Source: Lytechinus pictus
Taxonomy: Eukaryota
Direction: 5' to 3'
DNA: 64,000 bases
Assembly: GCF_037042905.1 (NCBI RefSeq)
Contig: NC_087250.1
Location: 15,316,001-15,380,000, forward strand
Position 1 is the stretch's first letter, and each line of letters begins with the position of its first letter. Of this stretch, positions 518 through 64,000 are shown piece after piece. The notes beneath the pieces were generated by a model. That model was not told where the DNA came from and searched no databases. It was given only the letters and a program-made list of their open reading frames with translations. The position numbers and the translations under genes were made by a program.

Positions 518-555
518 AATGGCATTAACCAAATGGCCTTTGACCTTTTCTGCAG

Positions 556-6255: not shown

Positions 6256-6262
6256 TATAAAG

Positions 6263-9420: not shown

Positions 9421-9439
9421 CCATGTGAGATAAGACCAA

Positions 9440-10153
<714 letters not shown>

Positions 10154-10167
10154 AACTTCCACTACTA

Positions 10168-10654
10168 TAAGAATAATAAGTAGGAGGAGAAGAAAACGAA
10201 GAAGAAGGAGAAGAAGGAGGAGAAATAGAAGGAGGAGGAGAAGAAGAAGAAAGACAAAGGAATAGGAGGTGAAAAAAGAAGGGTGAATGATGTAGTGGGA
10301 GGTGAAAGAAGGGAGGAGGAGGAGAAGAAAAAGAAAGAAGAGAAGAAGACAAAGGAGTGGGAGGTGAAAGAAGGAGGAGAAAAAGAGAAGAAAAAGAAGG
10401 AGAAGAAGAAAAAAAGGGGGGGGGAAGAAGGAGTAGGAGTGAAAGAAGGAGGAGGGGAGAAGTTAATGGAGAAAGAAAATAAGAAGGAGGAGGAGAAGAA
10501 GAAATGGAAGTAGAGGAAGAAGATGAAGGAGGAGGAGAAGAAGAAGAGGAAGAAGAAGAATGATAAGAAGAAGAGGAATAAAAAGGATAAAAAAGAAAAT
10601 AAGGAGTAGGAGGTGAATGAAGGAGGAGAGAGAGGAGAAGAAGAACAACAAGAA
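10168..10654. repeat. Purine-rich (GAA/GGA) low-complexity tract abutting the array
   Basis: Directly visible; ends ...AACAAGAA|CTAG at the first unit of the array. Confidence 0.95.
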
Positions 10655-11876
10655 CTAGAACTGCAATCGTTTCCGAACGATGTGCATGCATTGACGCGTC
10701 TGATTGAAAGGTCAAGTCCACCTCAGAAAAATAGTGATTTGAATCAATAGGGAAAAATCAGACAAGCACAATGCTGAAAATTTCATCAAAATCGGACGTA
10801 AAATAAAAAAGTTATGACATTTCAAAGTTTCGCTTATTTTTAACAAAATAGTTATATGAACGAGCCAGTTACATCCAAATGAGAGAGATGATGATGTCAC
10901 TCACTCAAAATGGCGCATGCACTGTCATGCATGAATGATTTTAGAAAATGAAATAAAAGGTACACAATAATGCATCATGGACAACATGTCTACCAAATCG
11001 GAATGAATTTGGATGAGGAGCGGAGGCAGGGGAGGACTAAAAAAAATTACACGTTAATCGGATTTTGGTACATTTTGCCCTCCATAAGAAGTTACATTCT
11101 CGAGTCAAACAGATTTCGTCCATTTTTAGACCATATGGTCGCTTAACGAAGAGAGAGAAGGGAGAGAAAGACACACAGAGAGTGATATGAATAAGCATAC
11201 AAATTTCCCTGACAGTTCATTAACGTAACTCAGTGTAAAGTACGTATCAAAACGATGTGCATGCATAATACGTTATGGCATATAGACATTGTATACAATT
11301 CTGTTATTGATAATGTGTGCATTATGAGTGGTATACCATGTGTTCAGATTGGCTTATCTTGAAATTTTCTGTTGTAAACTATGTCGTATTTGGTATCACT
11401 GGAAAGAGCATTTCCATGCGGTGACATTGATACCCCTTTTTGTGTGCGCAAGCAATAGACCGGAAGTAAATGCCATATAAAGAAAGACATTAAAAATGAC
11501 AGTTTTTCACAATAATTTTAAGCTGACGTCAGCTCTACGTCAGTTTCTGTCACAAAAGGTTGACGAACGACTAAAGTATATATCAATACTCATATCTGCC
11601 AAGTTAGTAAGGATAAGATTCAATAATAAGGAAATAAGAGCAAGTTGAAGTTGTGCTGGCATTATAGTGCAATTTTGCTTATTTTGCTGATTTTCGGGAG
11701 CATTTTTCAGATATTTCGTCAGTGGTAAGGTATATATTTTTCTAAATGGCATGAAAGGGCATATCTTGAACACCCTAAATCTTAAAAAAGGTACGGGTTT
11801 GGCCATGCATGACGCAATGAGGAGCATTCAAAGATAAGCGTTTTTGAAACTTTAGAGGGCGCTATTTCAATACCGG

Positions 11877-11906
11877 CAAGGCCCTATATAAACATATAGG
11901 GCCTTG
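11877..11906. mobile_element. 30-bp palindromic insertion with 13-bp TIRs and an 8-bp TSD
   Basis: AATACCGG|CAAGGCCCTATAT-AAAC-ATATAGGGCCTTG|AATACCGG. The empty site TTCAATACCGGAAGG is seen in other units (for example near 27125 and 36032). Confidence 0.9.
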
Positions 11907-14250
11907 AATACCGGAAGGTCAATGATGCGTGAAAACTGACTCGTATGTATGATATGTTGCCAGTATTGATTCCTGAAAATTTGAGCTCGAATTGAATAAA
12001 AACTAGAAAGTTATGGCCATTTTACGATTTTTTGACTTTACATTTCAATAAATATGAAGTTTTTGAAGGAAGGCTATTTCAGATTGGAATTTAGGGCATG
12101 TAGATGGCATTTTGAAGGTCAGGTTATACGTCGCAGATGATGGAGCAACTCTTTGACTATCTATAGCAATTTGTTAGAAGTCTGTAGCATGCAGGATGCG
12201 GGAGTTAGGACGAGATTAGTAATGGTATGCAAATGGACTTGAAATTTACAAAATGGCGCCTTGATGGTCATGCATGAGTGATTTTGGAAAATGGAAGACG
12301 AGGTGCACAACTAGGGATGCTGGACAACATGTCTACAAAGTTTGGATGAATTTGGATGAGGGACGGAGCCAGGGTAGAGCTAACAAAAACCATGTGTTAA
12401 ACAAATGGGATTTGGTGGAAGAAGAAGAAGAAGAAGACGACGGACTAGAACTGCAATCGTTTCATTACGATGTGCATGCATTGACGTGTCTGATTGAAAG
12501 GTCAAGTCCACCTCAGAAAAATGTTGATTTGAATCAATAGGAAAAAATCAGACAAGCACAATGCTGAAAATTTCATCAAAATCGGATGTAAAATAAGAAA
12601 GTTATGACATTTCAAAGTTTCGCTTATTTTTAACAAAAGAGTTATATGAACGAGCCAGTTACATCCAAATGAGAGAGATGATGATGTCACTCACTCAAAA
12701 TGGTGCATGCACTGTCATGCATGAATGATTTTAGAAAATGAAATAAGAGATACGCAATAATGCATCATGGACAACATGTCTACCAAATCGGAATGAATTT
12801 GGATGAGGAGCGGAGGCAGGGGAGGACTAACAAAAATTACACGTTAATCAAAGTGGATTTTGGTACATTTTGCCCTCCATAGGAAGTTACATTCTCGAGT
12901 CAAACAGATTTCGTCCATTTTTAGACCAAATGGCCGCTCAACAAAGAGAGAGAAGGGAGAGAAAGACACAGAGAGAGTGATATGAATAAGCATACACATT
13001 TCCCGGACAGTTCATTAACGTAACTCAGTGTAAAGTACATAGCAGAACGATGTGCATGCATAATACGTTATGCCATAGACATTGTGTACAATGCTTTCGT
13101 TGATAATGTGTGCATTGTGAGTAGTATACCATGTGTTCAGATTGGCTTATCTTGAAATTTTCTGTTGTAACCTATGTCGTATTTGGTATCACTGGATAGG
13201 GCATTCCAATGCGGTGACATTGATACCACTCTTTTTTGTGCGCAAGCAATAGACCGGAAGTAAATGCCATATAAAGAAAGACATTAAAAATGACAGTTTT
13301 GCACAATAATTTTGAGCTGACGTCAGCTCTATGTCAGTTTCTGTCACAAAAGGTTAACGAACGGTTGAAATATATATCAATACTCATATCTGCCAAGTTA
13401 GAAAGGATAAACTTCAATAATAAGGAAATAAGAGCAAGTTGAAGTTGTGCTGGCATTATAGTGCATTTTTGCGTATTTTGCTGATTTTCGGGAGCATTTT
13501 TCAGATATTTCGTCAGTGGTAAGGTATATTTTTTTCTAAATGGCATGAAAGGGTATATCTTGAACACCCTAAATCTAAAAAAGGGTACGGGTTTGGCCAT
13601 GCATGACGCAATGAGGAGCATTCAAAGATAAGCGTTTTTGAAACTTTAGAGGGCGCTATTTCAGTAACGGAAATTTAGTGATGCGTGAAAAATGATTCCT
13701 ATGTATGATATGGTACCAGTATCAATTCCTGAAAATATGAGCTCAAAATGAATAAAAACAAGAAAGTTATGGCCATTTTACGATTTTTTGACTTTACATT
13801 TCAATAAATATGACGTTTTTGAAGGAAGGCTATTTCGGATTTGAATTTAGGGCATGAAGATGGCATTTTGAAGGTCAGGTTATACGTCGCAAATGATGGG
13901 GCAACTCTTTGACTATCTATAGCAATTTGTTAGAAGTCTGTAGAATGCAGGATGCGGGAGTTAGGACGAGATTAGTAATGGTATGCAAATGGACTTGAAA
14001 TTTACAAAATGGCGCCTAGATGGTCATGCATGAGTGATTTTGAAAAAAGGAAGACAAGGGGCACATCTAGGGATGCTGGACAACATGTCTACCAAGTTTG
14101 GATGAATTTGGATGAGGGACGGAGCCAGGGCAGAGCTAACAAACACCATGTGTTAAACAAATGGGATTTTGTGGAAGAAGAAGAAGAAGAAGAAGACTAG
14201 AACTGCAATCGTTTCATTACGATGTGCATGCATTGACGTGTCTGATTTAA

Positions 14251-14448
14251 AGGTCAAGTCCACCTCATAAAAATGTTGATTTGAATCAATAGGGAAAAAT
14301 CAGACAAGCAAAATGCTGAAAATTTCATCAAAATCGGATGTAAAAAAAGAAAGTTATGACATTTCAAAGTTTCGCTTATTTTTAACAAAAGAGTTATATG
14401 AACGAACCAGTTACATCCAAATGAGAGAGATGATAATGTCACTCACTC
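14251..14448 (+). mobile_element. Captured ~200-bp end of a TTAA-type (Kolobok-like) non-autonomous transposon; present in every unit, shown here for unit 3
   Basis: TTAA|AGGTCAAGTCCACC...AAATTTCATCAAAATCGGATGTAAAA...TCACTCACTC. TTAA is intact in units 3, 15 and 23. The family is recognised from memory of sea-urchin repeats and no partner TIR is present. Confidence 0.55.
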
Positions 14449-15568: not shown

Positions 15569-15621
15569 TTGTCTCACCTGCATAGCAGAGTGAGACTATA
15601 GGCGCCGCTTTTCCGACGGCG

Positions 15622-15664
<43 letters not shown>

Positions 15665-16558
15665 CGGCGGCGTCAACACCAAATCTTAACCTGAGGTTAA
15701 GTTTTTGAAATGACAGCATAACTTAGAAAGTATATGGACCTAGTTCATGAAACTTGGCCATAAGGTTAATCAAGTATTACTGAACATCCTGCCTGAGTTT
15801 CATGTCACATGACCAAGGTCAAAGGTCATTTAGGGTCAATGAACTTAGACCATGTTGGGGGAATCAACATCAAAATCTTAACCTAAGGTTAAGTTTTTGA
15901 AATGTCATCATAACTTAGAAAATATATGGACCTAGTTCATGAAACTTATACATAAGGTTAATCAAGTATCACTGAACATCCTGCATGAGTTTCACGTCAC
16001 ATGACCAAGGTCAAAGGTCATTTAGGGTCAATGAACTTTGGCCGAATTGGGGGTATCTGTTGAATTACCATCATAACTTTGCAAGTTTATGGATCTGATT
16101 CATGAAACTTGGACATAATAGTAATCAAGTATTACTGAACATCCTGTGCAAGTTTCAGGTCACATGATCAAGGTCAAAGGTCATTTAGGGTCAATGAACT
16201 TTGGCCAAATTGGGGGTATTTGTTGAATTACAGCCATAAATTTGAAAGTGTGTTGGTCTAGTTCATAAAACTTGGACATAATAGTAATCAAGTATCACTG
16301 AACATCCTGTGCGAGTTTCAGGTCACATGATCAAGGTCAAAGGTCATGTAAGGTCAAAGAACTTTGGCCACGTTGGGGGTATTTGTTAAATTGCCATCAT
16401 ATCTCTATAAGTGTATTGGTCTAGTTCATAAAACGTGGAAATAAGAGTAACCAAGTATCACTGAACATCTTGTGCGAGTTATAGTAGTTTTCAAAATCAG
16501 CACTGCTGCTATATTGAATCGCGTGATGCAGGTGAGACGGCCAGAGGCATTCCACTTG
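15569..16558 (+). mobile_element. 990-bp HINE/DINE-1-like element of a second family, inserted in unit 3
   Basis: TT, then subterminal IR GTCTCACCTGCAT (15571-15583) with local IR GTGAGAC (15590-15596), (GGC)n, 163-192 bp core tandem repeats, ATGCAGGTGAGAC (16526-16538), GCCagaGGC hairpin and CTTG end. It interrupts the host GAAGTTTTTGAAGG. Confidence 0.9.
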
Positions 16559-18734: not shown

Positions 18735-20559
18735 CTAGAACTGCAATCGTTTCAGAACGATGTGCATGCATTGACGCGTCTGATTGAAAGGTCAAGTCTA
18801 CCTCAGAAAAATGTTGATTTGAATCAATAGGGAAAAATCAGACAAGCGCAATGCTGAAAATTTCATCAAAATCGGATGTAAAATAAGAAAGTTATGACAT
18901 TTCAAAGTTTCGCTTATTTTTAACAAAAGATTTATATGAACGAGCCAGTTAAATGAGAGAGATGATGATGTCACTCACTCAAAATGGCGCATGCACTGTC
19001 ATGCATGAATGATTTTACAAAATGAAATAAGAGGTACACAATAATGCATCATGGACAACATGTCTACCAAATCGGAATGAATTTAGATGAGGAGAGGAGG
19101 CAGGGAGGACTAACAAAAATTACATGTTAATCAAAGTGGATTTTGGTACATTGTACCCTCCAGAGGAAGTTACATTCTCGAGTCAAACAGATTTCGTCCA
19201 TTTTTAGACCATATGGCCGCTCAACAAAGAAAGAGAAGGGAGAAAAAGACACAGAGAGAGTGATATGAATAAGCATATAAATTTCCCTGACAGTTCATAA
19301 ACGTAACTCAGTGTAAAGTACGTAGCAGAACGATGTGCATGCATAATACGTTATGCCATAGACATTGTGTACAATTCTGTTGTTGATATTTTGTGCATTG
19401 TGAGTAGTATACCATGTGTTCAGATTGGCTTATCTTGAAATTTTCTGTTGTAACCTATGTCGTATTTGGTATCACTTGATAGGGCATTCCAATGCGGTGA
19501 CATTGATACCACTTTTATTTTTGCGCAAGCACTAGACCGGAAGTAAATGCCATATAAAGAAAGACATTAAAAATGACAGTTTTGCACAATAATTTTGAGA
19601 TGACGTCAGCTCTATGTCAGTTTCTGTCACAAAAGGTTAACGAACGGTTGAAGTATATATCAATACTCATATCTGCCAAGTTAGAAAGGATAAACTTCAA
19701 TAATAAGGAAATAAGAGCAAGTTCAAGTTGTGCTGGCATCATAGTGCATTTTTGCGTATTTTGCTGATTTTCGGGAGCATTTTTCAGATATTTCGTCTGT
19801 GGTAAGGTATATTTTTTTCTAAATGGCATGAAAGGGCATATCTTGAACACCCTAAATCTAAAAAAGGGTACGGGTTTGGCCATGCATGACGCAATGAAGA
19901 GCATTCAAAGATAAGCGTTTTTGAAACTTAAGAGGGCGCTATTTCAATACCGGAAGATCAATGATGCGTGAAAAGTATGTCGTAAGTATGATATGTTGTC
20001 AGTATCAATTCCTGAATATATGAGCTCGAATTGAATAAAAACAAGAAAGTTATGGCCATTTTACGATTTTTTGACTTTACATTTCAATAAATATGACGTT
20101 TTTGAAGGAAGGCTATTTCGGATTTGAATTTAGGGCATGAAGATGGCATTTTGAAGGTCAGGTTATACGTCGCAAATGATGGGGCAACTCTTTGACTATC
20201 TATAGCAATTTGTTAGAAGTCTGTAGAATGCAGGATGCGGGAGTTAGGACGAGATTAGTAATGGTATGCAAATGGACTTGAAATTTACAAAATGGCGCCT
20301 AGATGGTCATGCATGAGTGATTTTGAAAAAAGGAAGACAAGGGGCACAACTAGGGATGCTGGACAACATGTCTACCAAGTTTGGATGAATTTGGATGAGG
20401 GACGGAGCCAGGGCAGAGCTAACAAACACCATGTGTTAAACAAATGGGATTTTGTGGAAGAAGAAGAAGAAGAAGAAGAAGAAGAAGAAGAAGAAGAAGA
20501 CGACGGAATAGGAATACGGAACAAGAACAATGCATTGTCGCCGTTGGGCGTCAATGCAA
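18735..20559 (-). mobile_element. Representative full-length unit with both termini (1825 bp)
   Basis: Minus-strand order: TTGCATTGACGC (5' subterminal IR, also pairing with the nearby GCGACAATGCA), (TTC)n, body, GCGTCAATGCA (3' subterminal IR, 11 bp perfect), hairpin TGCAcATCGTT-loop-AACGATTGCA, then GTTCTAG. Confidence 0.85.
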
Positions 20560-23500
20560 AGAAGAAGAAGAAGAAGAAGACGACGGAATAGGAATACGGA
20601 ACAAGAACAATGCATTGTCGCCGTTGGGCGTCAATGCAAAGACGACGGAATAGGAATACGGAACAAGAACAATGCATTGTCGCCATTGGGCGTCAATGCA
20701 ACTAGAACTGCAATCGTTTCCGAACGATGTGCATGCATTGACGCGTCTGATTGAAAGGTCAAGTCCACCTCAGAAAAATCTTGATTGGAATCAATAGGGA
20801 AAAATCTGAAAAGCACAATGCTGAAAATTTCATCAAAATCGGATGTAAAATAAGAAAGTTATGACATTTCAAAGTTTCGCTTATTTTTAACAAAAGAGTT
20901 ATATGAACGAGCCAGTTACATCCAAATGAGAGAGATGATGATGTCACTCACTCAAAATGGTGCATGCACTGTCATGCATGAATGATCAAAATCGGATTTA
21001 AAATAAGAAAGTTATGACATTTCAAAGTTTCGCTTATTTCTAACAAAATAGTATTAATTATGAACGAGCCAGTTACATGCAAATGAGAGAGATGATGATG
21101 TCACTCACTCAAAATGGTGCATGCACTGTCATGCATGAATGATTTTAGAAAATGAAATAAGAGGTACACAATAATGCATCATGGACAACATGTCTACCAA
21201 ATCGGAATGATATGGATAAGCATACACATTTCCCTGACAGTTCATTAACGTAATTCAGTGTAAAGTACATAGCAGAACGATGTGCATGCATAATACGTTA
21301 TGCCATAGACATTGTGTACAATTCTGTTGTTGATAATGTGTGCATTCTGAGTAGTATACCATGTGTTCAGATTGGCTTATCTTGAAATTTTCTGTTGTAA
21401 CCTATGTCATATTTGGTATCACTGGAAAGAACATTCAAATGCGGTGACATTGATACCCCTTTTATTTGTGCTCAAGCAATAGACCGGAAGTAAATGCCAT
21501 ATAAAGAAAAACATTAAAAATGAAGGTTTTGCACAAAAATTTTAAGCTGACGTCAGATTTTTGTCAGTTTCTGTTACAAAAGGTTGACGAACGGTTGAAG
21601 TATATATCAATACTCATATCTGCCAAGTTAGAAAGGATAAGCTTCAATAATAAGGAAATAAGAGCAAGTTGAAGTTGTGCTGGCATTATAGTGCATTTTT
21701 GCGTATTTTGCTGATTTTCGGGAGCATTTTTCAGATATTTTGTCAGCGGTAAGGTATATATTTTTCTAAATGGCATGAAAGAGCATATCTTGAACACCCT
21801 AAATCTAAAAAAGGGTACGGGTTTGGCCATGCATGACGAAATGAGGAGCATTCAAAGATAAGCGTTTTTGAAACTTTAGAGGGCGCTATTTCAGTAACGG
21901 AAATTCAGTGATGCGTGAAAACTAAGTCGTAAGTATGATATGGTACCAGTATCAATTCCTGAAAATATGAGCTCGAAATGAATAAAAACAATAAAGTTAT
22001 GGCCATTTTACGATTTTTTGACTTTACATTTCAATAAATGTGACGTTTTTGAAGGAAGGCTATTTCGGATTTGAATTTAGGGCATGAAGATGGCATTTTG
22101 AAGGTCAGGTTACACGTCGCAGATGATGGAGCAACTCTTTGACTATCTATAGCAATTTGTAAGAAGTCTGTAGAATGCAGGATGCGGGAGTTAGGACGAG
22201 ATTAGAAATGGTATGCAAATGGACTTGAAATTTACAAAATGGCGCCTTGATGGTCATGCATGAGTGATTTTGGAAAATGGAAGACGAGGTGCACAACTAG
22301 GGATGCTGGACAACATGTCTACAAAGTTTGGATGAATTTGGATGAGGGACGGAGCCAGGGTAGAGCTAACAAAAACCATGTGTTAAACAAATGGGATTTG
22401 GTGGAAGAAGAAGAAGAAGAAGACGACGGACTAGAACTGCAATCGTTTCATTACGATGTGCATGCATTGACGTGTCTGATTGAAAGGTCAAGTCCACCTC
22501 AGAAAAATGTTGATTTGAATCAATAGGAAAAAATCAGACAAGCACAATGCTGAAAATTTCATCAAAATCGGATGTAAAATAAGAAAGTTATGACATTTCA
22601 AAGTTTCGCTTATTTTTAACAAAAGAGTTATATGAACGAGCCAGTTACATCCAAATGAGAGAGATGATGATGTCACTCACTCAAAATGGTGCATGCACTG
22701 TCATGCATGAATGATTTTAGAAAATGAAATAAGAGATACGCAATAATGCATCATGGACAACATGTCTACCAAATCGGAATGAATTTGGATGAGGAGCGGA
22801 GGCAGGGGAGGACTAACAAAAATTACACGTTAATCAAAGTGGATTTTGGTACATTTTGCCCTCCATAGGAAGTTACATTCTCGAGTCAAACAGATTTCGT
22901 CCATTTTTAGACCAAATGGCCGCTCAACAAAGAGAGAGAAGGGAGAGAAAGACACAGAGAGAGTGATATGAATAAGCATACACATTTCCCGGACAGTTCA
23001 TTAACGTAACTCAGTGTAAAGTACATAGCAGAACGATGTGCATGCATAATACGTTATGCCATAGACATTGTGTACAATGCTTTCGTTGATAATGTGTGCA
23101 TTGTGAGTAGTATACCATGTGTTCAGATTGGCTTATCTTGAAATTTTCTGTTGTAACCTATGTCGTATTTGGTATCACTGGATAGGGCATTCCAATGCGG
23201 TGACATTGATACCACTCTTTTTTGTGCGCAAGCAATAGACCGGAAGTAAATGCCATATAAAGAAAGACATTAAAAATGACAGTTTTGCACAATAATTTTG
23301 AGCTGACGTCAGCTCTATGTCAGTTTCTGTCACAAAAGGTTAACGAACGGTTGAAATATATATCAATACTCATATCTGCCAAGTTAGAAAGGATAAACTT
23401 CAATAATAAGGAAATAAGAGCAAGTTGAAGTTGTGCTGGCATTATAGTGCATTTTTGCGTATTTTGCTGATTTTCGGGAGCATTTTTCAGATATTTCGTC

Positions 23501-26500: not shown

Positions 26501-29500
26501 ACATAACAGAACGATGTGCATGCATAATACGTTATGCCATAGACACTGTGTACAATTCTGTTGTTGATAATGTGTTCATTGTGAGAAGTATACCATGTGT
26601 TCAGATTGGCTTATCTTGAAATTTTCTGTTGTAACCTATGTCGTATTTGGTATCACTGGATAGAGCATTCCAATGCGGTGACATTGATACCACTTTTATT
26701 TGTGCGCAAGCAATAGACCGGAAGTAAATGCCATATAAAGAAAGACATTAAAAATGACAGTTTTTCACAATAATTTTGAGCTGACGTCAGCTCTATGTCA
26801 GTTTCTGTCACAAAAGGTTGACGAACGGTTGAAGTATATATCAATACTCATATCTGCCAAATTAGAAAGGATAAACTTCAATAATAAGGAAATAAGAGCA
26901 AGTTCAAGTTGTGCTGGCATTATAGTGCATTTTTGCGTATTTTGCTGATTTTCCGGAGCATTTTTCAGATATTTCGTCAGTGGTAAGGTATATTTTTTTC
27001 TAAATGGCATGAAAGGGCATATCTTGAACACCCTAAATCTAAAAAAGGGTACGGGTTTGGCCATGCATGACGCAATGAGGAGCATTCAAAGGTAAGCGTT
27101 TTTGAAACTTTAGAGGGCGCTATTTCAATACCGGAAGGTCAATGATGCGTGAAAACTGACTCGTATGTATGATATGTTGCCAGTATTGATTCCTGAAAAT
27201 TTGAGCTCGAATTGAATAAAAACTAGAAAGTTATGGCCATTTTACTATTTTTTGACTTTACATTTCAATAAATATGAAGTTCTTGAAGGAAGGCTATTTT
27301 GAATTTGAATTTAGGGCATGAAGATGGCATTTTGAAGGTCAGGTTATACGTCGCAAATGATGGAGCAACTCTTTGACTATCTATAGCAATTTGTTAGAAG
27401 TCTGTAGCATGTAGGATGTCGGAGTTAGGACGAGATTAGTGATGGTATGCAAATGGACTTGAAATTTACAAAATGGCGCCTTGATGGTCATGCATGAGTG
27501 ATTTTGGAAAATGGAAGACGAGGTGCACAACTAGGGTTGTTGGACAACATGTCTACAAAGTTTGGATGAATTTGGATGAGGGACGGAGCCAGGGTAGAGC
27601 TAACAAAAACCATGTGTTAAACAAATGGGATTTTGTGGAAGAAGAAGAAGACGACGGAATAGGAATACGGAACAAGAACAATGCATTGTCGCCATTGGGC
27701 GTCAATGCAAAGACGACGGAATAGGAATACGGAACAAGAACAATGCATTGTCGCCAGTGGGCGTCAATGCAAAGACTAGAACTGCAATCGTTTCAGAACG
27801 ATGTGCATGCATTGACGCGTCTGATTGAAAGGTCAAATCCACCTCTGAAAAATGTTGATTTGAATCAATAGGGAAAAATCAGACAAGCACAATGCTAAAA
27901 ATTTCATCAAAATCGGATGTAAAATAAGAAAGTTATTACATTTCAAAGTTTCGCTTATTTTTAACAAAATAGTTATATGAACGAGCCACTTACATCCAAA
28001 TGAGAGAGATGATGATGTCACTCACTCAAAATGGTGCATGCACTGTCATGCATGAATGATTTAAGAAAATGAAATAAGAGGTACACAATAATGCATCATG
28101 GACAACATGTCTACCAAATCGGAATGAATTTGGATGAGGAGCGGAGGCAGGGGAGGACTAAAAAAAATTACATGTTAATCAAAGTGCATTTTGGTACATT
28201 TTGCCCTCCATAGGAAGTTACATTCTCGAGCTAAACAGATTTCGTCCATTTTTAGACCATATGGCCGCTCAACGAAGAGAGAGAAAGGAGAGAAAGACAC
28301 AGAGAGAGTGATATGAATAAGCGTACAAATTTCCCTGACAGTTCATTAACGTAACTCAGTGTAAAGTACGTACCAGAACGATGTGCATGCATAATACGTT
28401 ATGCCATAGACATTGTGTACAATTCTGTTATTGATAATGTATGCATCGTGAGTAGTATACCAGTGTTCAGATTGGCTTATCTTGAAATTTTCTGTTGTAA
28501 CCTATGTCGTATTTGGTATCACTGGAAAGAGCATTCCAATGCGGTGACATTGATACCACTTTTATTTGTGCGCAAGCAATAGACCGGAAGTAAATGCCAT
28601 ATAAAGAAAGACATTAAAAATGACAGTTTTGCACAATAATTTTAAGCTGACGTCAGCTCTTTGTCAGTTTCTGTCACAAAAGGTTGACGAACGGTTGAAG
28701 TATATATCAATACTCATTTCTGCCAAGTTAGAAAGGATAAGCTTTAATAATAAGGAAATAAGAGCAAGTTGAAGTTATGCTGGCATTATAGTGCATTTTT
28801 GCGTATTTTGCTGATTTTCGGGAGCATTTTTCAGATATTTCGTCAGTGGTAAGGTATATATTTTTCTAAATGGCATGAAAGGGCATATCTTGAACACCCT
28901 AAATCTAAAAAAGGGTACGGGTTTGGCCATGCATGACGCAATGAGGAGCATTCAAACGTAAGCGTTTTTGAAACTTTAGAGGGCGCTATTTCAATACCGG
29001 AAGGTCAATGATGCGTGAAAACTAACTCGTAAGTATGATATGTTGCCTGTAATAATTCCTGAAAATATTAGCTCGAATTGAATAAAAACAAGAAAGTTAT
29101 GGCCATTTTAGGAGTTTTTGACTTTACATTTCAATAAATATGAAGTTTTTGAAGGAAGGCTATTTCGGATTTGAATTTAGAGCATGAAGATGGCATTTTG
29201 AAGGTCAGGTTATACGTCGCAAATGATGGAGCAACTCTTTGACTATCTATAGGAATTTGTTAGAAGTTTGTAGCATGCAGGATGCGGGAGTTAGGACGAG
29301 ATTAGTAATGGTATGCAAATGGACTTGAAATTTACAAAATGGCGCCTTGATGGTCATGCATGAGTGATTTTGGAAAATGGAAGACGAGGTGCACAACTAG
29401 GGATGCTGGACAACATGTCTACAAAGTTTGGATGAATTTGGATGAGGGACGGAGCCAGGGTAGAACTAACAAAAACCATGTGTTAAACAAATGGGATTTT

Positions 29501-53500: not shown

Positions 53501-56500
53501 GATGAATTTGGATGAGGGACGGAGCCAGGGTAGAGCTAACAAAAACCATGTGTTAAACAAATGGGATTTTGTGGAAGAAGCAGAAGAAGAAGAAGACGAC
53601 GGAATAGGAATACGGAACAAGAACAATGCATTGTCGCCATTGGGCGTCAATGCAAAGAAGAAGAAGAAGAAGAAGACGACGGAATAGGAATACGGAACAA
53701 GAACAATGCATTGTCGCCGTTGGGCGTCAATGCAAAGACGACGGAATAGGAATACGGAACAAGAACAATGCATTGTCGCCATTGGGCGTCAATGCAACTA
53801 GAACTGCAATCGTTTCATTACGATGTGCATGCATTGACGTGTCTGATTTAGAGGTCAAGTCCACCTCATAAAAATGTTGATTTGAATCAATAGGGAAAAA
53901 TCAGACAAGCACAATGCTGAAAATTTCATCAAAATCGGATGTAAAATAAGAAAGTTATGACATTTCAAAGTTTCGCTTATTTTTAACAAAAGAGTTATAT
54001 GAACGAGCCAGTTACATCCAAATGAGAGAGATGATGATGTCACTCACTCAAAATGGTGCATGCACTGTCATGCATGAATGATTTTAGAAAATGAAATAAG
54101 AGGTACACAATAATGCATCATGGACAACATGTCTACCAAATCGGAATGAATTTGGATGAGGAGCGGAGGCAGGGGAGGACTAACAAAAATTACATGTTAA
54201 TCAAAGTGGATTTTGGTACATTTTGCCCTCCATAGGAAGTTACATTCTCGAGTCAAACAGATTTCGTCCATTTTTTGACCATGGCCGCTCAACAAAGAGA
54301 GAGAAGGGAGAGAAAGACACAGAGAGAGTGATATGAATAAGCATACAAATATCCCTGACAGTTCATAAACGTAACTCAGTGTAAAGTACATAGCAGAACG
54401 ATGTGCATGCATAATACGTTATGCCATAGACATTATGTACAATTTTATTGTTGATAATATGTGCATTGTGAGCAGTATACCATGTGTTCAGATTGGCTTA
54501 TCTTGAAATTTTCTGTTGTAACCTATGTCGTATTTGGTATCACTGGATAGGGCATTCCAATGCAGTGACATTGATACCACTTTTATTTTTGCGCAAGCAA
54601 TAGACCGGAAGTAAATGCCAAATAAAGAAATACATTAAAAATGACAGTTTTGCACAATAATTTTGAGCTGACGTCAGCTCTATGTCAGTTTCTGTCACAA
54701 AAGGTTAACGAACGGTTGAAGTATATATCAATACTCATATCTGCCAAGTTAGAAAGGATAAACTTCAATAATAAGGAAATAAGAGCAAGTTCAAGTTGTG
54801 CTGGCATTATAGTGCATTTTTTCGTATTTTGCTGATTTTCAGGAGCATTTTTCTGATATTTTGTCAGTGGTAAGGTATATATTTTTCTAAATGGCATGAA
54901 AGGGCATATCTTGAACACCCTAAATCTAAAAAAGGGTACGGGTTTGGCCATGCATGGCGCAATGAGGAGCATTCAAAGGTAAGCGTTTTTGAAACTTTAG
55001 AGGGCGCTATTTAGATACCGAAAGAGCAATGATGCGTGAAAACTAACTCGTATGTATGATATGTTGCGAGTATCAATTCCTGAAAGTATGAGCTCAAAAC
55101 AAATAAAAACAAGAAAGTTATGGCCATTTTACGATTTTTTGACTTTTCATTTCAATAAAAATGAAGTTTTTGAAGGAAGGCTATTTCGGATTTGAATTAA
55201 GGGCATGAAGCTGGCATTTTGAAGGTCAGGTTATACGTCGCAAATGATGGGGCAACTCTTTGACTATCTATAGCAATTTGTTAGAAGTCTGTAGAATGCA
55301 GGATGTGGGAGTTAGGACGAGATTAGTAATGGTATGCAAATGGACTTGAAATTTACAAAATGGCGCCTAGATGGTCATGCATGAGTGATTTTGAAAAAAG
55401 GAAGACAAGGGACACAACTAGGGATGCTGGACAACATGTCTACCAAGTTTGGATGAATTTGGATGAGGGACGGAGCCAGGGCAGAGCTAACAAACACCAT
55501 GTGTTAAACAAATGGGATTTTGTGGAAGAAGAAGAAGAAGAAGAAGAAGAAGAAGAAGAAGACGACGGAATAGGAATACGGAACAAGAACAATGCATTGT
55601 CGCCAGTGGGCGTCAATGCAAAGAAGACGACGGAATAGGAATACGGAACAAGAACAATGCATTGTCGCCATTGGGCGTCAATGCAACTAGAACTGCAATC
55701 GTTTCATTACGATGTGCATGCATTGACGCGTCTGATTGAAAGGTCAAGTCCACCTCAGAAAAATGTTGATTTGAATCAATAGGGAAAAATCAGACAAGCA
55801 CAATGCTGAAAATTTCATCAAAATCGGATGTAAAATAAGAAAGTTATGACATTTCAAAGTTTCGCTTATTTTTAACAAAAGAGTTATATGAACGAGCCAG
55901 TTACTTCCAAATGAGAGAGATGATGATGTCACTCACTCAAAATGGTGCATGCACTGTCATGCATGAATGATTTTAGAAAATGAAATAAGAGGTACACAAT
56001 AATGCATCATGCACAACATGTCTACCAAATCGGAATGAATTTGGATGAGGAGCGGAGGCAGGGGAGGACTAACAAAAATTACATGTTAATCAAAGTGGAT
56101 TTTGGTACATTTTGCCCTCCATAGGAAGTTACATTCTCGAGTCAAACAGATTTCGTCCATTTTTAGACCATATGGCCGCTCAACGAAGAGAGAGAAAGGA
56201 GAGAAAGACACAGAGAGAGTGATATGAATAAGCGTACAAATTTCCCTGACAGTTCATTAACGTAACTCAGTGTAAAGTACGGACCAGAACGATGTGCATG
56301 CATAATACGTTATGCCATAGACATTGTGTACAATTCTGTTATTGATAATGTATGCATCGTGAGTAGTATACCATGTGTTCAGATTGGCTTATCTTGAAAT
56401 TTTCTGTTGTAACCTATGTCGTATTTGGTATCACTGGATAGAGCATTCCCATGCGGTGACATTGGTACCACTTTTATTTGTGCGCAAGCAATAGACCGGA

Positions 56501-59500
56501 AGTAAATGCCATATAAAGAAAGACATTAAAAATGACAGTTTTGCACAATAATTTTAAGCTGACGTCAGCTCTATGTCAGTTTCTGTCACAAAAGGTTGAC
56601 GAACGGTTGAAGTATATATCAATACTCATTTCTGCCAAGTTAGAAAGGATAAGCTTTAATAATAAGGAAATAAGAGCAAATTGAAGTTATGCTGGCATTA
56701 TAGTGCATTTTTGCGTATTTTGCTGATTTTCGGGAGCATTTTTCAGATATTTCGTCAGCTGTAAGGTATATATTTTTCTAAATGGCATGAAAGGGCATAT
56801 CTTGAACACCCTAAATCTAAAAAAGGGTACGGGTTTGGCCATGCATGACGCAATGAGGAGCATTCAAAGATAAGCGTTTTTGAAACTTTAGAGGGCGCTA
56901 TTTCAATACCGGAAGGTCAATGATGCGTGAAAACTAAATCGTATGTATGATATGGTGCAAGTATAAATTCTTGAAAATATGAGCTCGAAATGAATAAAAA
57001 CAAGAAAGTTATGGCCATTTTACGATTATTTGACTTTACGTTTCAATAAATATGAAGTTTTTGAAGGAAGGCTATTTCGGATTTGAATTTAGGGCATGAA
57101 GATGGCATTTTGAAGGTCGGGTTATACGTCGCAAATGATGGGGCAACTCTTTGACTATCTATAGCAATTTGTTAGAAGTCTGTAGAATGCAGGATGCGGG
57201 AGTTAGGACGAGATTAGTAATGGTATGCAAATGGACTTGAAATTTACAAAATGGCGCCTAGATGGTCATGCATGAGTGATTTTGATAAAAAGAAGACGAG
57301 GGGCACAACTAGGGATGCTGGACAACATGTCTACCAAGTTTGGATGAATTTGGATGAGGGACGGAGCCAGGGCAGAGCTAACAAACACCATGTGTTAAAC
57401 AAATGGGATTTTGTGGAAGAAGAAGAAGAAGAAGACTAGAACTGCAATCGTTTCAGAACGATGTGCATGCATTGACGCGTCTGATTGAAAGGTCAAATCC
57501 ACCTCTGAAAAATGTTGATTTGAATCAATAGGGAAAAATCAGACAAGCACAATGCTAAAAATTTCATCAAAATCGGATGTAAAATAAGAAAGTTATTACA
57601 TTTCAAAGTTTCGCTTATTTTTAACAAAATAGTTATATGAACGAGCCACTTACATCCAAATGAGAGAGATGATGATGTCACTCACTCAAAATGGTGCATG
57701 CACTGTCATGCATGAATGATTTAAGAAAATGAAATAAGAGGTACACAATAATGCATCATGGACAACATGTCTACCAAATCGGAATGAATTTGGATGAGGA
57801 GCGGAGGCAGGGGAGGACTAACAAAAATTACATGTTAATCAAAGTGCATTTTGGTACATTTTGCCCTCCATAGGAAGTTACATTCTCGAGCTAAACAGAT
57901 TTCGTCCATTTTTAGACCATATGGCCGCTCAACGAAGAGAGAGAAAGGAGAGAAAGACACAGAGAGAGTGATATGAATAAGCGTACAAATTTCCCTGACA
58001 GTTCATTAACGTAACTCAGTGTAAAGTACGTACCAGAACGATGTGCATGCATAATACGTTATGCCATAGACATTGTGTACAATTCTGTTATTGATAATGT
58101 ATGCATCGTGAGTAGTATACCAGTGTTCAGATTGGCTTATCTTGAAATTTTCTGTTGTAACCTATGTCGTATTTGGTATCACTGGAAAGAGCTTTCCCAT
58201 GCGGTGACATTGGTACCACTTTTATTTGTGCACAAGCAATAGACCGGAAGTAAATGCCATATAAAGAAAGACATTAAAAATGACAGTTTTGCACAATAAT
58301 TTTAAGCTGACGTCAGCTCTTTGTCAGTTTCTGTCACAAAAGGTTGACGAACGGTTGAAGTATATATCAATACTCATTTCTGCCAAGTTAGAAAGGATAA
58401 GCTTTAATAATAAGGAAATAAGAGCAAGTTGAAGTTATGCTGGCATTATAGTGCATTTTTGCGTATTTTGCTGATTTTCGGGAGCATTTTTCAGATATTT
58501 CGTCAGTGGTAAGGTATATATTTTTCTAAATGGCATGAAAGGGCATATCTTGAACACCCTAAATCTAAAAAAGGGTACGGGTTTGGCCATGCATGACGCA
58601 ATGAGGAGCATTCAAAGGTAAGCGTTTTTGAAACTTTAGAGGGCGCTATTTCAATACCGGAAGATCAATGATGCGTGAAAACTAACTCGTAAGTATGATA
58701 TGTTGCCTGTAATAATTCCTGAAAATATTAGTTCGAATTGAATAAAAACAAGAAAGTTATGGCCATTTTATGATTTTTTTACTTTACATTTCAATAAATA
58801 TGAAGTTTTTGAAGGAAGGCTATTTCGGATTTGAATTTAGGGCATGAAGATGGCATTTTGAAGGTCAGGTTATACGTCGCAAATGATGGAACAACTCTTT
58901 GACTATCTATAGGAATTTGTTAGAAGTTTGTAGCATGCAGGATGCGGGAGTTAGGACGAGATTAGTAATGGTATGCAAATGGACTTGAAATTTACAAAAT
59001 GGCGCCTTGATGGTCATGCATGAGTGATTTTGGAAAATGGAAGACGAGGTGCACAACTAGGGATGCTGGACAACATGTCTACAAAGTTTGGATGAATTTG
59101 GATGAGGGACGGAGCCAGGGTAGAGCTAACAAAAACCATGTGTTAAACAAATGGGATTTTGTGGAAGAAGCAGAAGAAGAAGAAGAAGACGACGGAATAG
59201 GAATACGGAACAAGAACAATGCATTGTCGCCATTGGGCGTCAATGCAAAGAAGAAGAAGAAGAAGAAGACGACGGAATAGGAATACGGAACAAGAACAAT
59301 GCATTGTCGCCGTTGGGCGTCAATGCAACTAGAACTGCAATCGTTTCCGAACGATGTGCATGCATTGACGCGTCTGATTGAAAGGTCAAGTCCACCTCAG
59401 AAAAATCTTGATTGGAATCAATAGGGAAAAAATCAGACAAGCACAATGCTGAAAATTTCATCAAAATCGGATGTAAAATAAGAAAGTTATGACATTTCAA

Positions 59501-62500
59501 AGTTTCGCTTATTTTTAACAAAAGAGTTATATGAACGAGCCAGTTACATCCAAATGAGAGAGATGATGATGTCACTCTCAAAATGGCGCATGCAATATCA
59601 TGCATGAATGATTTTACAAAATGAAATAAGAGGTACACAATAATGCATCATGGACAACATGTCTACCAAATCGGAATGAATTTGGATGAGGAGAGGAGGC
59701 AGGGAGGACTAACAAAAATTACATGTTAATCAAAGTGGATTTTGGTACATTGTACCCTCCAGAGGAAGTTACATTCTCGAGTCAAACAGATTTCGTCCAT
59801 TTTTAGACCATATGGCCGCTCAACAAAGAGAGAAAAGGGAGACAAAGACACAGAGAGAGTGTTATGAATAAGCATACAAATTTCCCTGACAGTCATTAAC
59901 GTAACTCAGTGTAAAGTACATAGCAGAACGATGTGCACGCATAATACGTTATGCCATTGACATTGTGTACAATTCTGTTGTTGATAATGTGTGCGTTGTG
60001 AGTAGTATACCATGTGTTCAGATTGGCTTATCTTGAAATTTTCTGTTGTAACCTATGTCGTATTTGGTATCACTGGAAAGAGCATTCCCATGCGGTGACA
60101 TTGATACCCCTTTTAATTGTGCGCAAGCAATAGATCGGAAGTAAATGCCATATAAAGAAAGACATTAAAAATGACAGTTTTGCACAATAATTTTAAACTG
60201 ACGTCAGATTTTTGTCACTTTCTGTCACAAAAGGTTAACGAACGGTTAAAGTATATATCAATACTCATATCTGCCAAGTTAGAAAGGATAAGCTTTAATA
60301 ATAAGGAAATAAGAGCTAGTTGAAGTTGTGCTGGCATTATAGTGCATTTTTGCGTATTTTGCTGATATTCGGGAGCATTTTTCAGATATTTCGTCAGTTG
60401 TAAGGTATATATTTTTCTAAATGGCATAAAAGGGCATATCTTGAACACCCTAAATCTAAAAAAGGGTACGGGTTTGGCCATGCATGACGCAATGAGGAGC
60501 ATTCAAAGGTAAGTGTTTTTGAAACTTTAGAGGGCGCTATTTCAATAACAGAAAATCAATGATGCGTATAAACTATACCGTGTGTATGATATGGTACCAG
60601 TTTCAATTCCTGAGAATATAGGCTCAAAATGAATAAAAACAAGAAAGTTATGGCTATTTTACGATTTTTTGACTTTACATTTCAATAAATATGACGTTTT
60701 TGAAGGAAGGCTATTTCGGATTTGAATTTAGAGCATGAAGATGGCATTTTGAAGGTCAGGTTATTTGTCGCAGATGATGAAGCAATTCTTTGACTATCTA
60801 TAGCAATTTGTTAGAAGTTTGTAGCATGCAGGATGCGGGAGTTAGGATGAGATTAGTAATGGTATGCAAATGGACTTGAAATTTACAAAATGGCGCCTTG
60901 ATGGTCATGCATGAATGATTTTGGAAAATGGAAGACGAGGTGCACAACTAGGGATGCTGGACAACATGTCTACAAAGTTTGGATGAATTTGGTTGTGGGA
61001 CTGAGCCAGGGTAGAGCTAACAAAAACCATGTGTTAAACAAATGGGATTTTGTGGAAGAAGAAGAAGAAGAAGACTAGAACTGCAATCGTTTCAGAACGA
61101 TGTGCATGCATTGACGCGTCTGATTGAAAGGTCAACTCCACCTCAGAAAAATGTTGATTTGAATCAATAGGGAAAAATCAGACAAGCACAATGCTGAAAA
61201 TTTCATCAAAATCGGATGTAAAATAAGAAAGTTATGACATTTCAAAGTTTCGCTTATTTTAAACAAAATAGTTATATGAACGAGCCAGTTACATCCAAAT
61301 GAGAGTGATGATGATGTCACTCACTCAAAATGGCGCATGCACTGTCATGTATGAATGATTTTAGAAAATGAAATAAGAGGTACACACTAATGCATCATCG
61401 ACAACATATCTGCCAAATGAATTTGGATGAGGAGCGGAGGCAGGGGAGGAATTAAAAAAAATTACATGTTAATAAAAGTGGATTTAGGACATTATGCCCT
61501 CCATAGGAAGTTGCATTCTCGAGTCAAACAGATTTCGTCCATTTTTTTACCATGGTCGCTCAACAAAGAGAGAGAAGGGAGAGAAAGACACAGAGAGAGT
61601 GATATGAATAAGCATACAAATATCCCTGACAGTTCATAAACGTAACTCAGTGTAAAGTACATAGCAGAACGATGTGCATGCATAATACGTTATGCCATAG
61701 ACATTGTGTACAATTTTATTGTTGATAATATGTGCATTGTGAGCAGTATACCATGTGTTCAGATTGGCTTATCTTGAAATTTTCTGTTGTAACCTATGTC
61801 GTATTTGGTATCGGTGGAAAGAGCATTCCAATGCGGTGACATTGATACCACTTTTATTTGTGCGCAGGCAATAGACCGGAAGTAAATGCCATATAAAGAA
61901 AGACATTAAAAATGACAGTTTTTCACAATAATTTTAAGCTGACGTGAGCTCTATGTCAGTTTCTGTCACAAAAGGTTGACGAACGGTTAAAGTATATATC
62001 AATACGCATATCTGCCAAGTAAGAAAGGATAAGCATCAATAATAAGGAAATAAGAGCAAGTTCAAGTTGTGCTGGCATTATAGTGCATTTTTGCGTATTT
62101 TGCTGATTTTCGGGAGCATTTTTCAGATATTTGGTCAGTAGTAAGGTATATATTTTTCTAAATGGCATGAAAGGGCATATCTTTAACACCCTAAATCTAA
62201 AAAAGGGTACGGGTTTGGCCATGCATGACGCAATGAGGAGCATTCAAACGTAAGCGTTTTTGAAACTTTAGAGGGCGCTATTTCAATACCGGAAGGTCAA
62301 TGATGCGTGAAAACTAACTCGTAAGTATGATATGTTGCCTGTAATAAGTCCTGAAAATATTAGATCGAATTGAATAAAAACAAGAAAGTTATGGCCATTT
62401 TAGGATTTTTTGACTTTACATTTCAATAAATATGAAATTTTTGAAGGAAGGCTATTTCGGATTTGAATTTAGGGCATGAAGATGGCATTTTGAAGGTCAG

Positions 62501-64000
62501 GTTATACGTCGCAAATGATGGAGCAACTCTTTGACTATCTATAGGAATTTGTTAGAAGTTTGTAGCATGCAGGATGCGGGAGTTAGGACGAGATAAGTAA
62601 TGGTATGCAAATGGACTTGAAATTTACAAAATGGCACCTTGATGGTCATGCATGAGTGATTTTGGAAAATGGAAGACGAGGTGCACAACTAGGGATGCTG
62701 GACAACATGTCTACAAAGTTTGGATTAATTTGGATGAGGGACGGAGCCAGGGTAGAGCTAACAAAAACCATGTGTTAAACAAATGGGATTTTGTGGAAGA
62801 AGCAGAAGAAGAAGACTAGAACTGCAATCGTTTCAGAACGATGTGCATGCATTGACGCGTCTGATTGAAAGGTCAACTCCACCTCAGAAAAATGTTGATT
62901 TGAATCAATAGGGAAAATTCAGACAAGCGCAATGCTGAAAATTTCATCAAAATCGGATTTAAAATAAGAAAGTTATGACATTTCAAAGTTTCGCTTATTT
63001 CTAACAAAATAGTTTTAATTATGAACGAGCCAGTTACATGCAAATGAGAGAGATGATGATGTCACTCACTCAAAATGGTGCATGCACTGTCATGCATGAA
63101 TGATTTTAGAAAATGAAATAAGAGGTACACAATAATGCATCATGGACAACATGTCTACCAAATCGGAATGATATGGATAAGCATACACATTTCCCTGACA
63201 GTTCATTAACGTAACTCAGTGTAAAGTACATAGCAGAACGATGTGCATGCATAATACGTTATGCCATAGACATTGTGTACAATTCTGTTGTTGATAATGT
63301 GTGCATTCTGAGTAGTATAACATGTGTTCAGATTGGCTTATCTTGAAATTTTCTGTTGTAACCTATGTCATATTTGGTATCACTGGAAAGAGCATTCAAA
63401 TGCGGTGACATTGATACCCCTTTTATTTGTGCTCAAGCAATAGACCGGAAGTAAATGCCATATAAAGAAAAACATTAAAAATGAAGGTTTTGCACAATAA
63501 TTTTAAGCTGACGTCAGATTTTTGTCAGTTTCTGTCACAAAAGGTTAACGAACGGTTGAAGTATATATCAATACTCATATCTGCCAAGTTAGAAAGGATA
63601 AACTTCAATAATAAGGAAATAAGAGCAAGTTCAAGTTGTGCTGGCATTATAGTGCATTTTTGCGTATTTTGCTGATTTTCGGGAGCATTTTTCAGATATT
63701 TCGTCAGAGGTAAGGTATATTTTTTTCTAAATGGCATGAAAGGGCATATCTTGAACACCCTAAATCTAAAAAAGGGTACGGGTTTGGCCATGCATGACGC
63801 AATGAGGAGCATTCAAAGATAAGCGTTTTTGAAACTTTAGAGGGCGCTATTTCAGTAACGGAAATTCAGTGATGCATGAAAACTGAGTCCTATGTATGAT
63901 ATTGTACCAGTATCAATTCCTGCAAATATGAGCTCAAAATGAATAAAAACAAGAAAGTTATGGCAATTTTACGATTTTTTTACTTTACATTTCAATAAAT

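Follow-up and report, generated by a model that had tools for sequence, protein, structure and literature searches.

The stretch of Lytechinus pictus DNA analysed here comprises 64,000 nt (contig NC_087250.1, positions 15,316,001 to 15,380,000; hereafter the window), and more than 53 kb of it are taken up by a one-way array of an element that we classify, by structure, as a non-autonomous Helentron (HINE). The array continues past the right end of the window and contains, up to that point, 30 units (U1 to U30; Table 1). On the plus strand each unit begins with the head sequence CTAGAACTGCAATCGTT, of which 30 copies were found from 10655 to 62816, all of them on the plus strand; the minus strand has none. 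Unit length ranges from 1373 to 2740 nt and is typically about 1.75 kb. Pairwise divergence between units is mostly 4-6%; near-identical pairs were also found (U2 = U7, U6 ~ U8, U15 = U23 and U10 ~ U27). To the left of U1 lies a GA-rich tract, at the end of which the first junction reads ...CAACAAGAA/CTAG (the slash marks a junction here and below). This tract, whose matches to the microsatellite of the unit are of low complexity only, is a candidate for the original landing site. A sequence at about 10250 within it, AAGACAAAGGAATAGGA, looked by eye like the start of the 61-nt module described below; a fuzzy search with up to 6 errors gave no match.

The initial annotation had read the element on the plus strand, as CTAG...TGCAA, and had taken it for a Helentron-type transposon. 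The terminal structures bear out the type and reverse the direction: they place the element on the minus strand, with the annotated "terminal module" as its 5' end and the annotated "CTAG" as its 3' end. From 5' to 3', the element consists of a T, a subterminal inverted repeat (subTIR) TGCATTGACGCC, a 4-nt loop, an inverted repeat GGCGACAATGCA, about 30 nt, a (TTC)n microsatellite, a 1.6-kb non-coding body, the 3' subTIR GCGTCAATGCA, a 10-bp hairpin and the end GTTCTAG. The 5' subTIR, TGCATTGACGC, starts at nt 2 and its complement, GCGTCAATGCA, starts 43 nt before the 3' end; the excerpted text of PMC4067079 describes Helentron subTIRs as being about 11-15 nt long, with a distance of 2-4 nt to the 5' end and of about 38-60 nt to the 3' end. 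The inverted repeat GGCGACAATGCA lies 4 nt past the 5' subTIR, with 11 of 12 positions pairing, and (TTC)4-14 starts 61 nt from the 5' end. Both features belong to HINEs as described in the excerpted text of PMC7492417, namely a short inverted repeat complementary to the 5' subTIR a few nucleotides downstream of it, and a microsatellite in the left flank. The 3' hairpin (TGCA-C-ATCGTT, a loop of 4-6 nt, AACGAT-TGCA) stops 7 nt short of the terminus (11 nt when the inner stem alone is counted) and represents the palindrome or stem-loop that is expected past the 3' subTIR, at a distance of 8-35 nt from the end. Predicted folds gave a hairpin in 30 of 30 heads and in 21 of 21 modules, and the loops vary (ATT, AGT or GTT in the module; CGA, AGA or ATT in the head).

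No long open reading frame (ORF) or Pfam family was found in the unit. A 95-aa ORF at 11540-11827, on the minus strand and hence on the element's own strand, recurs in several units including U2 and U3 and gave 0 Pfam families; it is probably kept merely through the similarity of the units. The body contains internal tandem repeats of 157-192 nt, and HINEs with "central repeats" have been described (excerpted text of PMC7492417). Judged by these structural features of the DNA, the unit is a non-autonomous Helentron. Some further observations on the units can be mentioned. An old internal duplication of 169 nt (77.5% identity) occupies unit offsets 252-418 and 1559-1725 (U25, 53798-55686, is an example), and its second copy stops exactly at the microsatellite start. 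Shortened units were found as well: U15 (36636-38008, 1373 nt) and U23 (50474-51848, 1375 nt) have the same internal deletion, and U11 (29716-31242) measures 1527 nt.

Table 1. Features of the array and of its left flank, in window coordinates.
Feature	Position	Strand	Remarks
HINE-like array, 30 head-to-tail units (U1-U30)	10655..64000	minus	All co-oriented; U30 cut by window end
GA-rich degenerate (GAA/GGA)n tract	10160..10654	plus	Directly left of U1; Tandem Repeats Finder (TRF) periods 3, 18 and ~60-63
3' end, example (annotated "head")	33001..33045	minus	3' subTIR GCGTCAATGCA, hairpin, tail GTTCTAG; from folds and inverted repeats
61-nt 5' module, example	34753..34813	minus	T, subTIR TGCATTGACGCC, 4-nt loop, inverted repeat GGCGACAATGCA, then TTGTTCTTGTTCCGTATTCCTATTCCGTCGTC
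Own microsatellite, example	34724..34753	minus	(AAG)10 on plus, (TTC)n in element orientation; directly inside 5' module
Internal 163-192-nt tandem repeats of U3	15673..16480	plus	Lengthen U3 to 2740 nt
GACGACGGA/CTAG junctions	12445, 22431		
TGCAA/CTAG junctions	20702, 29716, 41641, 43513, 53798, 55687, 59329		
TGCAA-AGA/CTAG junctions	27776, 34817, 36636		
Leftovers with n = 0 (4)	20647, 27718, 29596, 53743		
Leftovers with n = 1 (4)	29661, 41586, 43458, 55632		
Leftovers with n = 6 (3)	20585, 53681, 59274		
Three-module stack behind U5	20499..20701	minus	Own GTT module, A(GAA)6-GACGAC-GTT, A-GACGAC-ATT
Three-module stack behind U24	53595..53797	minus	Own ATT module, n = 6 GTT, n = 0 ATT
U10, same element as U27	27776..29588	minus	Exactly 1813 nt; 14 mismatches to U27, no gaps
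U27, complete 1813-nt element	57436..59248	minus	CTAG...TGCAA on plus; inside U26 microsatellite
1995-nt block identical to 22207-24201	12221..14215	plus	Exact matches; flanking mismatches at 12220 and 14216
1547-nt block identical to 24182-25728	20701..22247	plus	Exact matches

The 29 internal junctions between the 30 heads fall into four classes: 17 are of the form (GAA)nGA/CTAG, 2 read GACGACGGA/CTAG, 7 read TGCAA/CTAG and 3 read TGCAA-AGA/CTAG, and all of these counts agree with those of the initial annotation. The core of the 61-nt module was found 21 times on the plus strand and 0 times on the minus strand. The modules form 10 stacks, of sizes 3, 2, 3, 1, 1, 2, 2, 3, 2 and 2, so that 19 of the 29 junctions have no module. 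Each of the 11 surplus modules is preceded by a leftover A(GAA)n, with n = 0, 1 or 6 (Table 1); stacks of one to three modules and these three leftover lengths had also been annotated, and both were reproduced.

The best single explanation of this arrangement, to which we give about an even chance of being right, is a self-nesting Helentron array with an overlay of recombination. It draws on the anatomy described above, on the junction classes, on the constraint on the termini, on partial bracket pairing and on the recombination that can be observed in the array. All 17 cut junctions end in ...AAGA/, and all 11 closers (surplus modules with their leftovers) and the 3 pieces "AGA/" start with AG... 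right after TGCAA; therefore, removal of an insert in silico yields a perfect (AAG)k+n+1, with no base duplicated or lost. An example is U27. It is flanked by (AAG)6A/ on the left and by AG(AAG)6ACGAC and a GTT module on the right, and once it is taken out in silico, U26 is again a B-type unit that has (AAG)13 and a GTT module. The same element is present as U10 between a module-AGA/ on the left and an AGACGAC-module on the right, a context that differs from that of U27 on both sides. The statement in the initial annotation that every junction fits an A/A site (T/T on the other strand) without target duplication holds for 29 of 29 junctions. It is important to mention that all 29 lie within the array, where exchange based on microhomology yields the same letters as insertion at T/T.

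The last point leads to the main alternative, which we consider unlikely: an ordinary tandem array, derived from a single HINE or from a precise TGCAA-AGA/CTAG tandem amplified in place, would have been remodelled by unequal exchange. Exchange or slippage between the AAGA(C) that follows the module and the AAGA(C) of (GAA)n would produce cut junctions by module loss and TGCAA/AGACGAC stacks by module doubling. Out-of-register events would give n = 1 or 6, a loss of 3 nt would give TGCAA/CTAG, and a 2-nt microhomology would give GGA/CTAG. Such exchange is formally sufficient, a point that weighs against nesting: each junction class shares A, GA, AAGA or AAGAC with its partner sequence, and all classes can formally be derived from one ancestral junction, TGCAA-AGA/CTAG, by exchange at AAGA(C), one of several outcomes that the initial annotation had named as together speaking against its own interpretation. 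A junction without a module would be an absorbing state, which fits the 19 module-less junctions, and two stacks contain perfect local duplicates, with period 80 at 20479-20642 and period 65 at 43382-43512 (both 100%). On the other hand, neighbouring modules of a stack share their loop type in only 2 of 8 first pairs; therefore, local duplication is not the general source of the stacks. The supposed ancestral state with a single module is kept at only 2 of the 29 junctions, which also disfavours exchange.

The lengths of the microsatellites and the positions of recent breakpoints provide further evidence. The units were assigned to subfamilies by their last 260 nt. Complete type A units have an ATT module and (AAG)7-8 in 5 of 5 cases, and complete type B units have an AGT or GTT module and (AAG)10-14 in 3 of 3 cases. 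Cut microsatellites are shorter than complete ones in both subfamilies (A, 6-7 vs 7-8; B, 6-8 vs 10-14); therefore, a cut inside the tract fits and a deletion at its end does not, and exchange at the 5-nt AAGAC, which predicts cut tracts as long as complete ones, does not account for the difference. A pooled impression that the cuts are concentrated at the distal end of the microsatellite failed once the units were split by subfamily. Four recent identity blocks have 8 boundaries, 6 of which are at most 20 nt from the point where a head starts, a module ends or a cut lies. The other 2 are the two sides of one crossover inside U6; hence, 6 of 7 independent breakpoints are located at element ends, which argues against exchange as the only process.

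If heads are read as opening and modules as closing brackets, each closer can be assigned to an opener. The subfamily ranges used for this purpose were taken from the window: type A corresponds to ATT and a sum of 6-9, and type B to AGT or GTT and a sum of 9-15. Bracket-matched closers fit the module type of their opener in 7 of 9 testable pairs (expected 4.6, P = 0.11), and both the type and the restored length k+n+1 in 7 of 9 (expected 3.5, P = 0.015, with ranges chosen post hoc). When a closer is paired with the adjacent complete unit instead, only 3 of 11 fit. Under unequal exchange the sister products come to lie on different chromatids and no fit between opener and closer is predicted, in contrast to the fit observed in type and sum. 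The comparison of module single-nucleotide polymorphisms with unit haplotypes by bracket matching had been proposed in the initial annotation; its outcome is moderately positive, U6 is mismatched, and U22 and U23 cross. As regards strict last-in-first-closed nesting, 7 of 9 testable pairs fit in type and sum, there is one mismatch and one crossing pair, and 9 hosts are still open at the window end. The bracket pairing provides moderate support for nesting. Pairing by a CAG interruption alone, which gave a fit in 3 of 5 cases, was dropped because the CAG units U8 and U19 have B-type tails.

A further line of evidence comes from the distribution of polymorphism along the 30 units. Polymorphic sites with a minor allele count of at least 2 make up 344 of 1627 positions in the body but only 1 of 98 in the termini outside the loops (Fisher P = 6e-9), and every 98-nt window of the body contains at least 5 of them. 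Shared polymorphism in the termini is thereby depleted about 20-fold, and singletons are much less depleted (12% vs 5%). Of the common terminal polymorphisms, 5 of 6 are located in one or other hairpin loop. U14 has the most divergent 5' module (36572-36632), with three private changes, two of which are a compensatory change from C-G to T-A at the closing pair of the 5' hairpin. This constraint, together with the confinement of polymorphism to the loops, suggests that the units diversified as transposing lineages and not by neutral decay in place. Divergence in place, as assumed by the exchange explanation, leaves both the terminal depletion and its restriction to loops unexplained. A classical satellite formed in place should have uniform junctions and even divergence; what is found are four junction classes, 0-3 modules per junction and constrained termini.

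Recombination within the array can be observed directly. The 1995-nt identical block (Table 1) spans the last 224 nt of U1 and U6, the junction GACGACGGA/CTAG, the whole of U2 and U7, the next cut junction and 19 nt of the following head, and it is a recombinational copy, not the result of transposition. The two GACGACGGA/CTAG junctions represent one event copied by recombination, because both are located within this block. U6 itself is recombinant, its first 1546 nt being of U8 type and its tail of U1 type, and recombinational copying with an interior breakpoint, which favours exchange, is demonstrated in this way. The initial annotation had supposed a later reshuffling by duplication and had cautioned that few junctions are independent events because leftover lengths recur; the n = 6 GTT closer occurs in three stacks.

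Several observations weigh against a clean nest. The copying over two junctions and the recombinant U6 are non-transpositional events, and active exchange might, in principle, have generated the junction classes through the AAGA(C) microhomology that they share. The bracket depth never falls below zero and ends at 30 - 21 = 9 at the window end, as had been annotated, but it carries no evidential weight as a never-negative count, because 45% of the shuffles satisfied it as well when the module counts per junction were shuffled 100,000 times. The pairing statistics comprise 9 pairs, some of which depend on each other, and the data had been seen before the length ranges were set. U6 is cut at GGA/ATAGG, whereas the module assigned to it by bracket matching (29655-29715) is complete and preceded by an AGAA leftover, and the corresponding remnant TGCAA/ATAGG is absent from the 64-kb window. 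The closers behind U24 fit U22 (type B) and U23 (type A) as a set, but in crossing order. The closer A(GAA)6-GACGAC-GTT of the three stacks follows inner elements that are about 5% divergent. Between U15 and U23 there are 1 mismatch and 2 gaps over 1373 nt; the two lie 14 kb apart in different junction contexts and, despite their near-identity, have different bracket partners (n = 1 ATT vs n = 6 GTT). The host exceeds the insert in private changes in only 10 of 29 pairs, and complete, i.e. innermost, units have 6.7 private changes per kb vs 4.9 in cut units. This flat result of the age-order test fits exchange; the test is weak and uninformative, since the number of private changes in a unit is affected by the chance presence of a close relative in the window. 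Finally, all 29 insertions would fall in about 100 nt of a TT-rich 1.75-kb unit, so that the target rule must be much narrower than TT. Taken as a whole, the self-nesting interpretation of the initial annotation stands as regards the Helentron structure, the T/T fit and partial pairing; its brackets are not clean, its depth argument has no weight, and exchange is formally sufficient.

Nest-like topology could also arise in the absence of a transposase. Template switching during replication, of the fork stalling and template switching (FoSTeS) or microhomology-mediated break-induced replication (MMBIR) type, would act at the AAGA microhomology and copy segments bounded by ...AAGA/CTAG and TGCAA/AGA... 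into the (GAA)n of other units. All junctions have 1-5 nt of microhomology, (GAA)n tracts stall replication, and the same in-frame restoration and bracket pairing as in true insertion would result. We regard this explanation as improbable, since both switch points must hit the exact element ends many times; in addition, it leaves the selective constraint on subTIRs and hairpin stems unexplained, as well as the TGCAA/CTAG junctions, in which only A is shared.

The TGCAA/CTAG junctions are, on the other hand, the exact 3'-to-5' joint expected of a circle, and rolling-circle amplification of circular intermediates was therefore considered. Complete circles would give TGCAA/CTAG concatemers, circles that had lost the 5' module through internal recombination would give module-less runs, and partial templates would give several 5' ends, an origin proposed for plant centromeric Helitrons. 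Helitron arrays with several 5' ends and one 3' end have been reported (Xiong et al. 2016, as summarized in excerpts of PMC12628747 and PMC5148889). In the window, 3' ends (30) outnumber 5' ends (21), which is the opposite of the reported bias. Concatemers of one circle should be near-identical, whereas neighbours in this array differ by 4-6% and have tails of different subfamilies; nor are neighbouring units more alike than distant ones within the window. This origin appears improbable.

Sequence data from outside the window were available as Logan contigs from four public runs (X1, X2, X3 and X15) of three coded organisms. The family is present in the contigs of all four. At position 34813, AGA-less contigs account for 70% of the depth in X1, 5% in X3, 8% in X2 and 18% in X15; from the presence of AGA-containing and AGA-less contigs it follows that both module-to-head joints exist elsewhere. 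Their co-occurrence in all four runs also agrees with unequal exchange. The AGA-less depth in X1 (19.1 of 27.3) equals the 7 of 10 found in the window, and X1, as possibly the source sample of the window, provides no independent support. Positions 32900-33012 and 34714-34784 were skipped as repeats, by which loose ends at the CTAG terminus were dropped, and the depths are not convertible to copy numbers. No loose ends behind TGCAA (34813-34816) were seen among the matches listed for these contigs, in which the termini are partly masked, a result that carries no inference on solitary copies. Metagenome contigs were also scanned for exact matches to two patterns, one from the module end and one from the 3' subTIR-hairpin region, and 0 loci were found with either.

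These contigs also bear on the possibility that the array is a collapsed or mis-joined repeat in the assembly. Long similar repeats are hard to assemble, and the window itself shows no sign of error. Both TGCAA-AGA-CTAG and TGCAA/CTAG joints are present in the contigs of the public runs, one X1 contig has (GAA)n running into a head, and the units have coherent, distinct haplotypes, all of which makes an artefact barely credible. It was also noticed that the region 33053-33253 (unit offset about 53-253, in every unit) has a summed depth 10-100 times that of the rest of the unit in X2, X3 and X15, and that hundreds of contigs depart from the unit at 33053, 33120, 33168 and 33186, into flanks that agree poorly. 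It seems that part of a dispersed or tandem repeat of much higher abundance is included in the HINE. A tRNA-derived short interspersed element (SINE) as the origin of this sub-repeat was not supported, as a tRNA scan of positions 1-20000 found none.

According to the self-nesting explanation, the locus would be a macrosatellite built from minus-strand HINE copies, which would have grown mainly through repeated same-strand insertions of family members. These insertions would have occurred at T/T, at most about 85 nt from the 5' end of the resident copy and without target duplication. The targets would mostly have been the resident's own (TTC)n, in some cases a site exactly at or 3 nt outside its 5' boundary, and in one case a site within the module. 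Each insertion would split its host into a leftover repeat and a 5' module displaced behind the insert, and would therefore give rise to runs of module-less units followed by module stacks. The single orientation of all copies would follow from the presence of TT only on the (TTC)n strand. Subsequent homologous exchange and duplication within the array would have reshuffled part of the nest. The host remainder of U1, TGCAA/ATAGGAATACGG, would be located beyond the right edge of the window and be followed by a GA-rich tract. We infer that a Helentron transposase made the insertions; its preference for the 5' end may be related to single-strand exposure of (TTC)n or to transposase bound at the 5' end, either of which might favour such sites. 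As a tentative extension, which we hold to be possible and somewhat short of an even chance, the family would carry its own preferred target and grow as a co-oriented, self-nesting macrosatellite largely confined to a few loci ("safe harbour"). The transposase would then act on single-stranded DNA, at T/T in (TTC)n or at the boundary beside the 5' hairpin of a resident copy.

In comparison with known HINEs, i.e. DINE-1 of Drosophila, HINE-Mo of a mite and Cg_HINE of the Pacific oyster (as far as the excerpted texts of PMC4067079 and PMC7492417 describe them), the element has in common subTIRs of 11-12 nt (distance from the 5' end, 1-2 nt; from the 3' end, about 43 nt), a microsatellite in the left flank, a palindrome past the 3' subTIR and, a few nucleotides downstream of the 5' subTIR, an inverted repeat complementary to it. 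Both are non-coding, with internal tandem repeats of about 160-190 nt and junctions that fit T/T insertion. The HINEs described there are short and dispersed and have central repeat arrays, whereas here at least 30 whole elements are co-oriented, with junctions in their own microsatellite or 5' end. In Cg_HINE, microsatellite motifs of 4 nt predominate, whereas the motif here is a trinucleotide. An autonomous partner, which would encode Rep, helicase and endonuclease between the same termini, was not seen in the window.

A parallel is offered by the non-canonical Helitrons of Fusarium (FoHeli), in which multiple short 5' termini were ascribed to self-insertion near the 5' end (excerpted text of PMC5148889). 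In both systems the 5' termini are short (<200 nt) and repeated, and one body with one 3' end follows them. A FoHeli copy inserted 2 nt upstream of the 5' end of another, and three tandem copies that were read as double 5'-end insertion or as rolling-circle replication, are further similarities (same excerpt). As described there, FoHeli are isolated cases with two or three ends and no microsatellite, whereas here about 30 iterations would have occurred at one locus via the element's own repeat, with runs of 5'-less units and compensating stacks. In plant centromeres, arrays built from truncated Helitrons (Xiong, Dooner and Du 2016, in the accounts excerpted from PMC12628747 and PMC5148889) likewise have unequal numbers of 5' and 3' ends; they were explained by rolling-circle amplification of truncated circles and have many 5' ends per 3' end, unlike the divergent neighbours and the excess of 3' ends found here. 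Dimers and satellites of transposable elements that arise by insertion-site preference (McGurk and Barbash, in the account excerpted from PMC12628747) resemble the present case in that copies land at or beside residents and can seed satellites. They differ in being dimers or short arrays of cut-and-paste or retro-elements, with no nesting through an internal microsatellite in that account. In a limited literature search, no description was found of iterated Helentron nesting through the element's own microsatellite.

Insertion into simple repeats is a related theme. Coates et al. are said to have described in 2010 a Helitron-like family of Lepidoptera that disrupts (GAAA)n. MuTAnT elements target TA microsatellites (excerpted text of PMC4486113). 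Common to these cases and to the nesting proposed here is that the insertion site is a simple repeat with the target dinucleotide on its T-rich strand; as far as the material on them goes, the targeted repeat is genomic, whereas here it would be part of the element and the family would be its own target.

The remainder of the window, to the left of the array, contains other features. A (ACT)n tract of about 238 copies (9439-10153) precedes the degenerate GA-rich tract, which is about 500 nt long, has a weak period of about 60 nt and ends where the array begins. An ORF at 474-794 (plus strand) has a weak Pfam match to Oxysterol_BP (25.4 bits, below the cut-off of 28.9), and an ORF at 2561-3013 (plus strand) has a weak match to SAP (21.2 bits, below the cut-off of 23.9). 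These frames may be exons or decayed fragments, and the array may accordingly be situated beside or within a gene region. Blocks of tandem repeats at 3567-4247 and 4539-5603, with periods of 145 and 128-130 nt and 71-82% matches, are unrelated to the array unit.

The conversion of transposons to satellites is usually explained by unequal exchange or rolling-circle amplification. The locus offers a possible third route to satellite DNA, namely repeated insertion into a simple repeat carried by the element itself. Should the nesting explanation be wrong, the array would still be a clear example of an entire HINE that has become a macrosatellite whose GAA repeat harbours recombination hotspots. 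We know of no bench study of target choice by a Helentron transposase, and, if nesting is correct, the array would provide a natural substrate for such work. Nesting would also explain why the copies have a single orientation, why units without a 5' end occur in runs, and how the family can stay active with little harm to host genes. It would further account for the stacking of 5' ends, which has been reported but left unexplained in other Helitrons.

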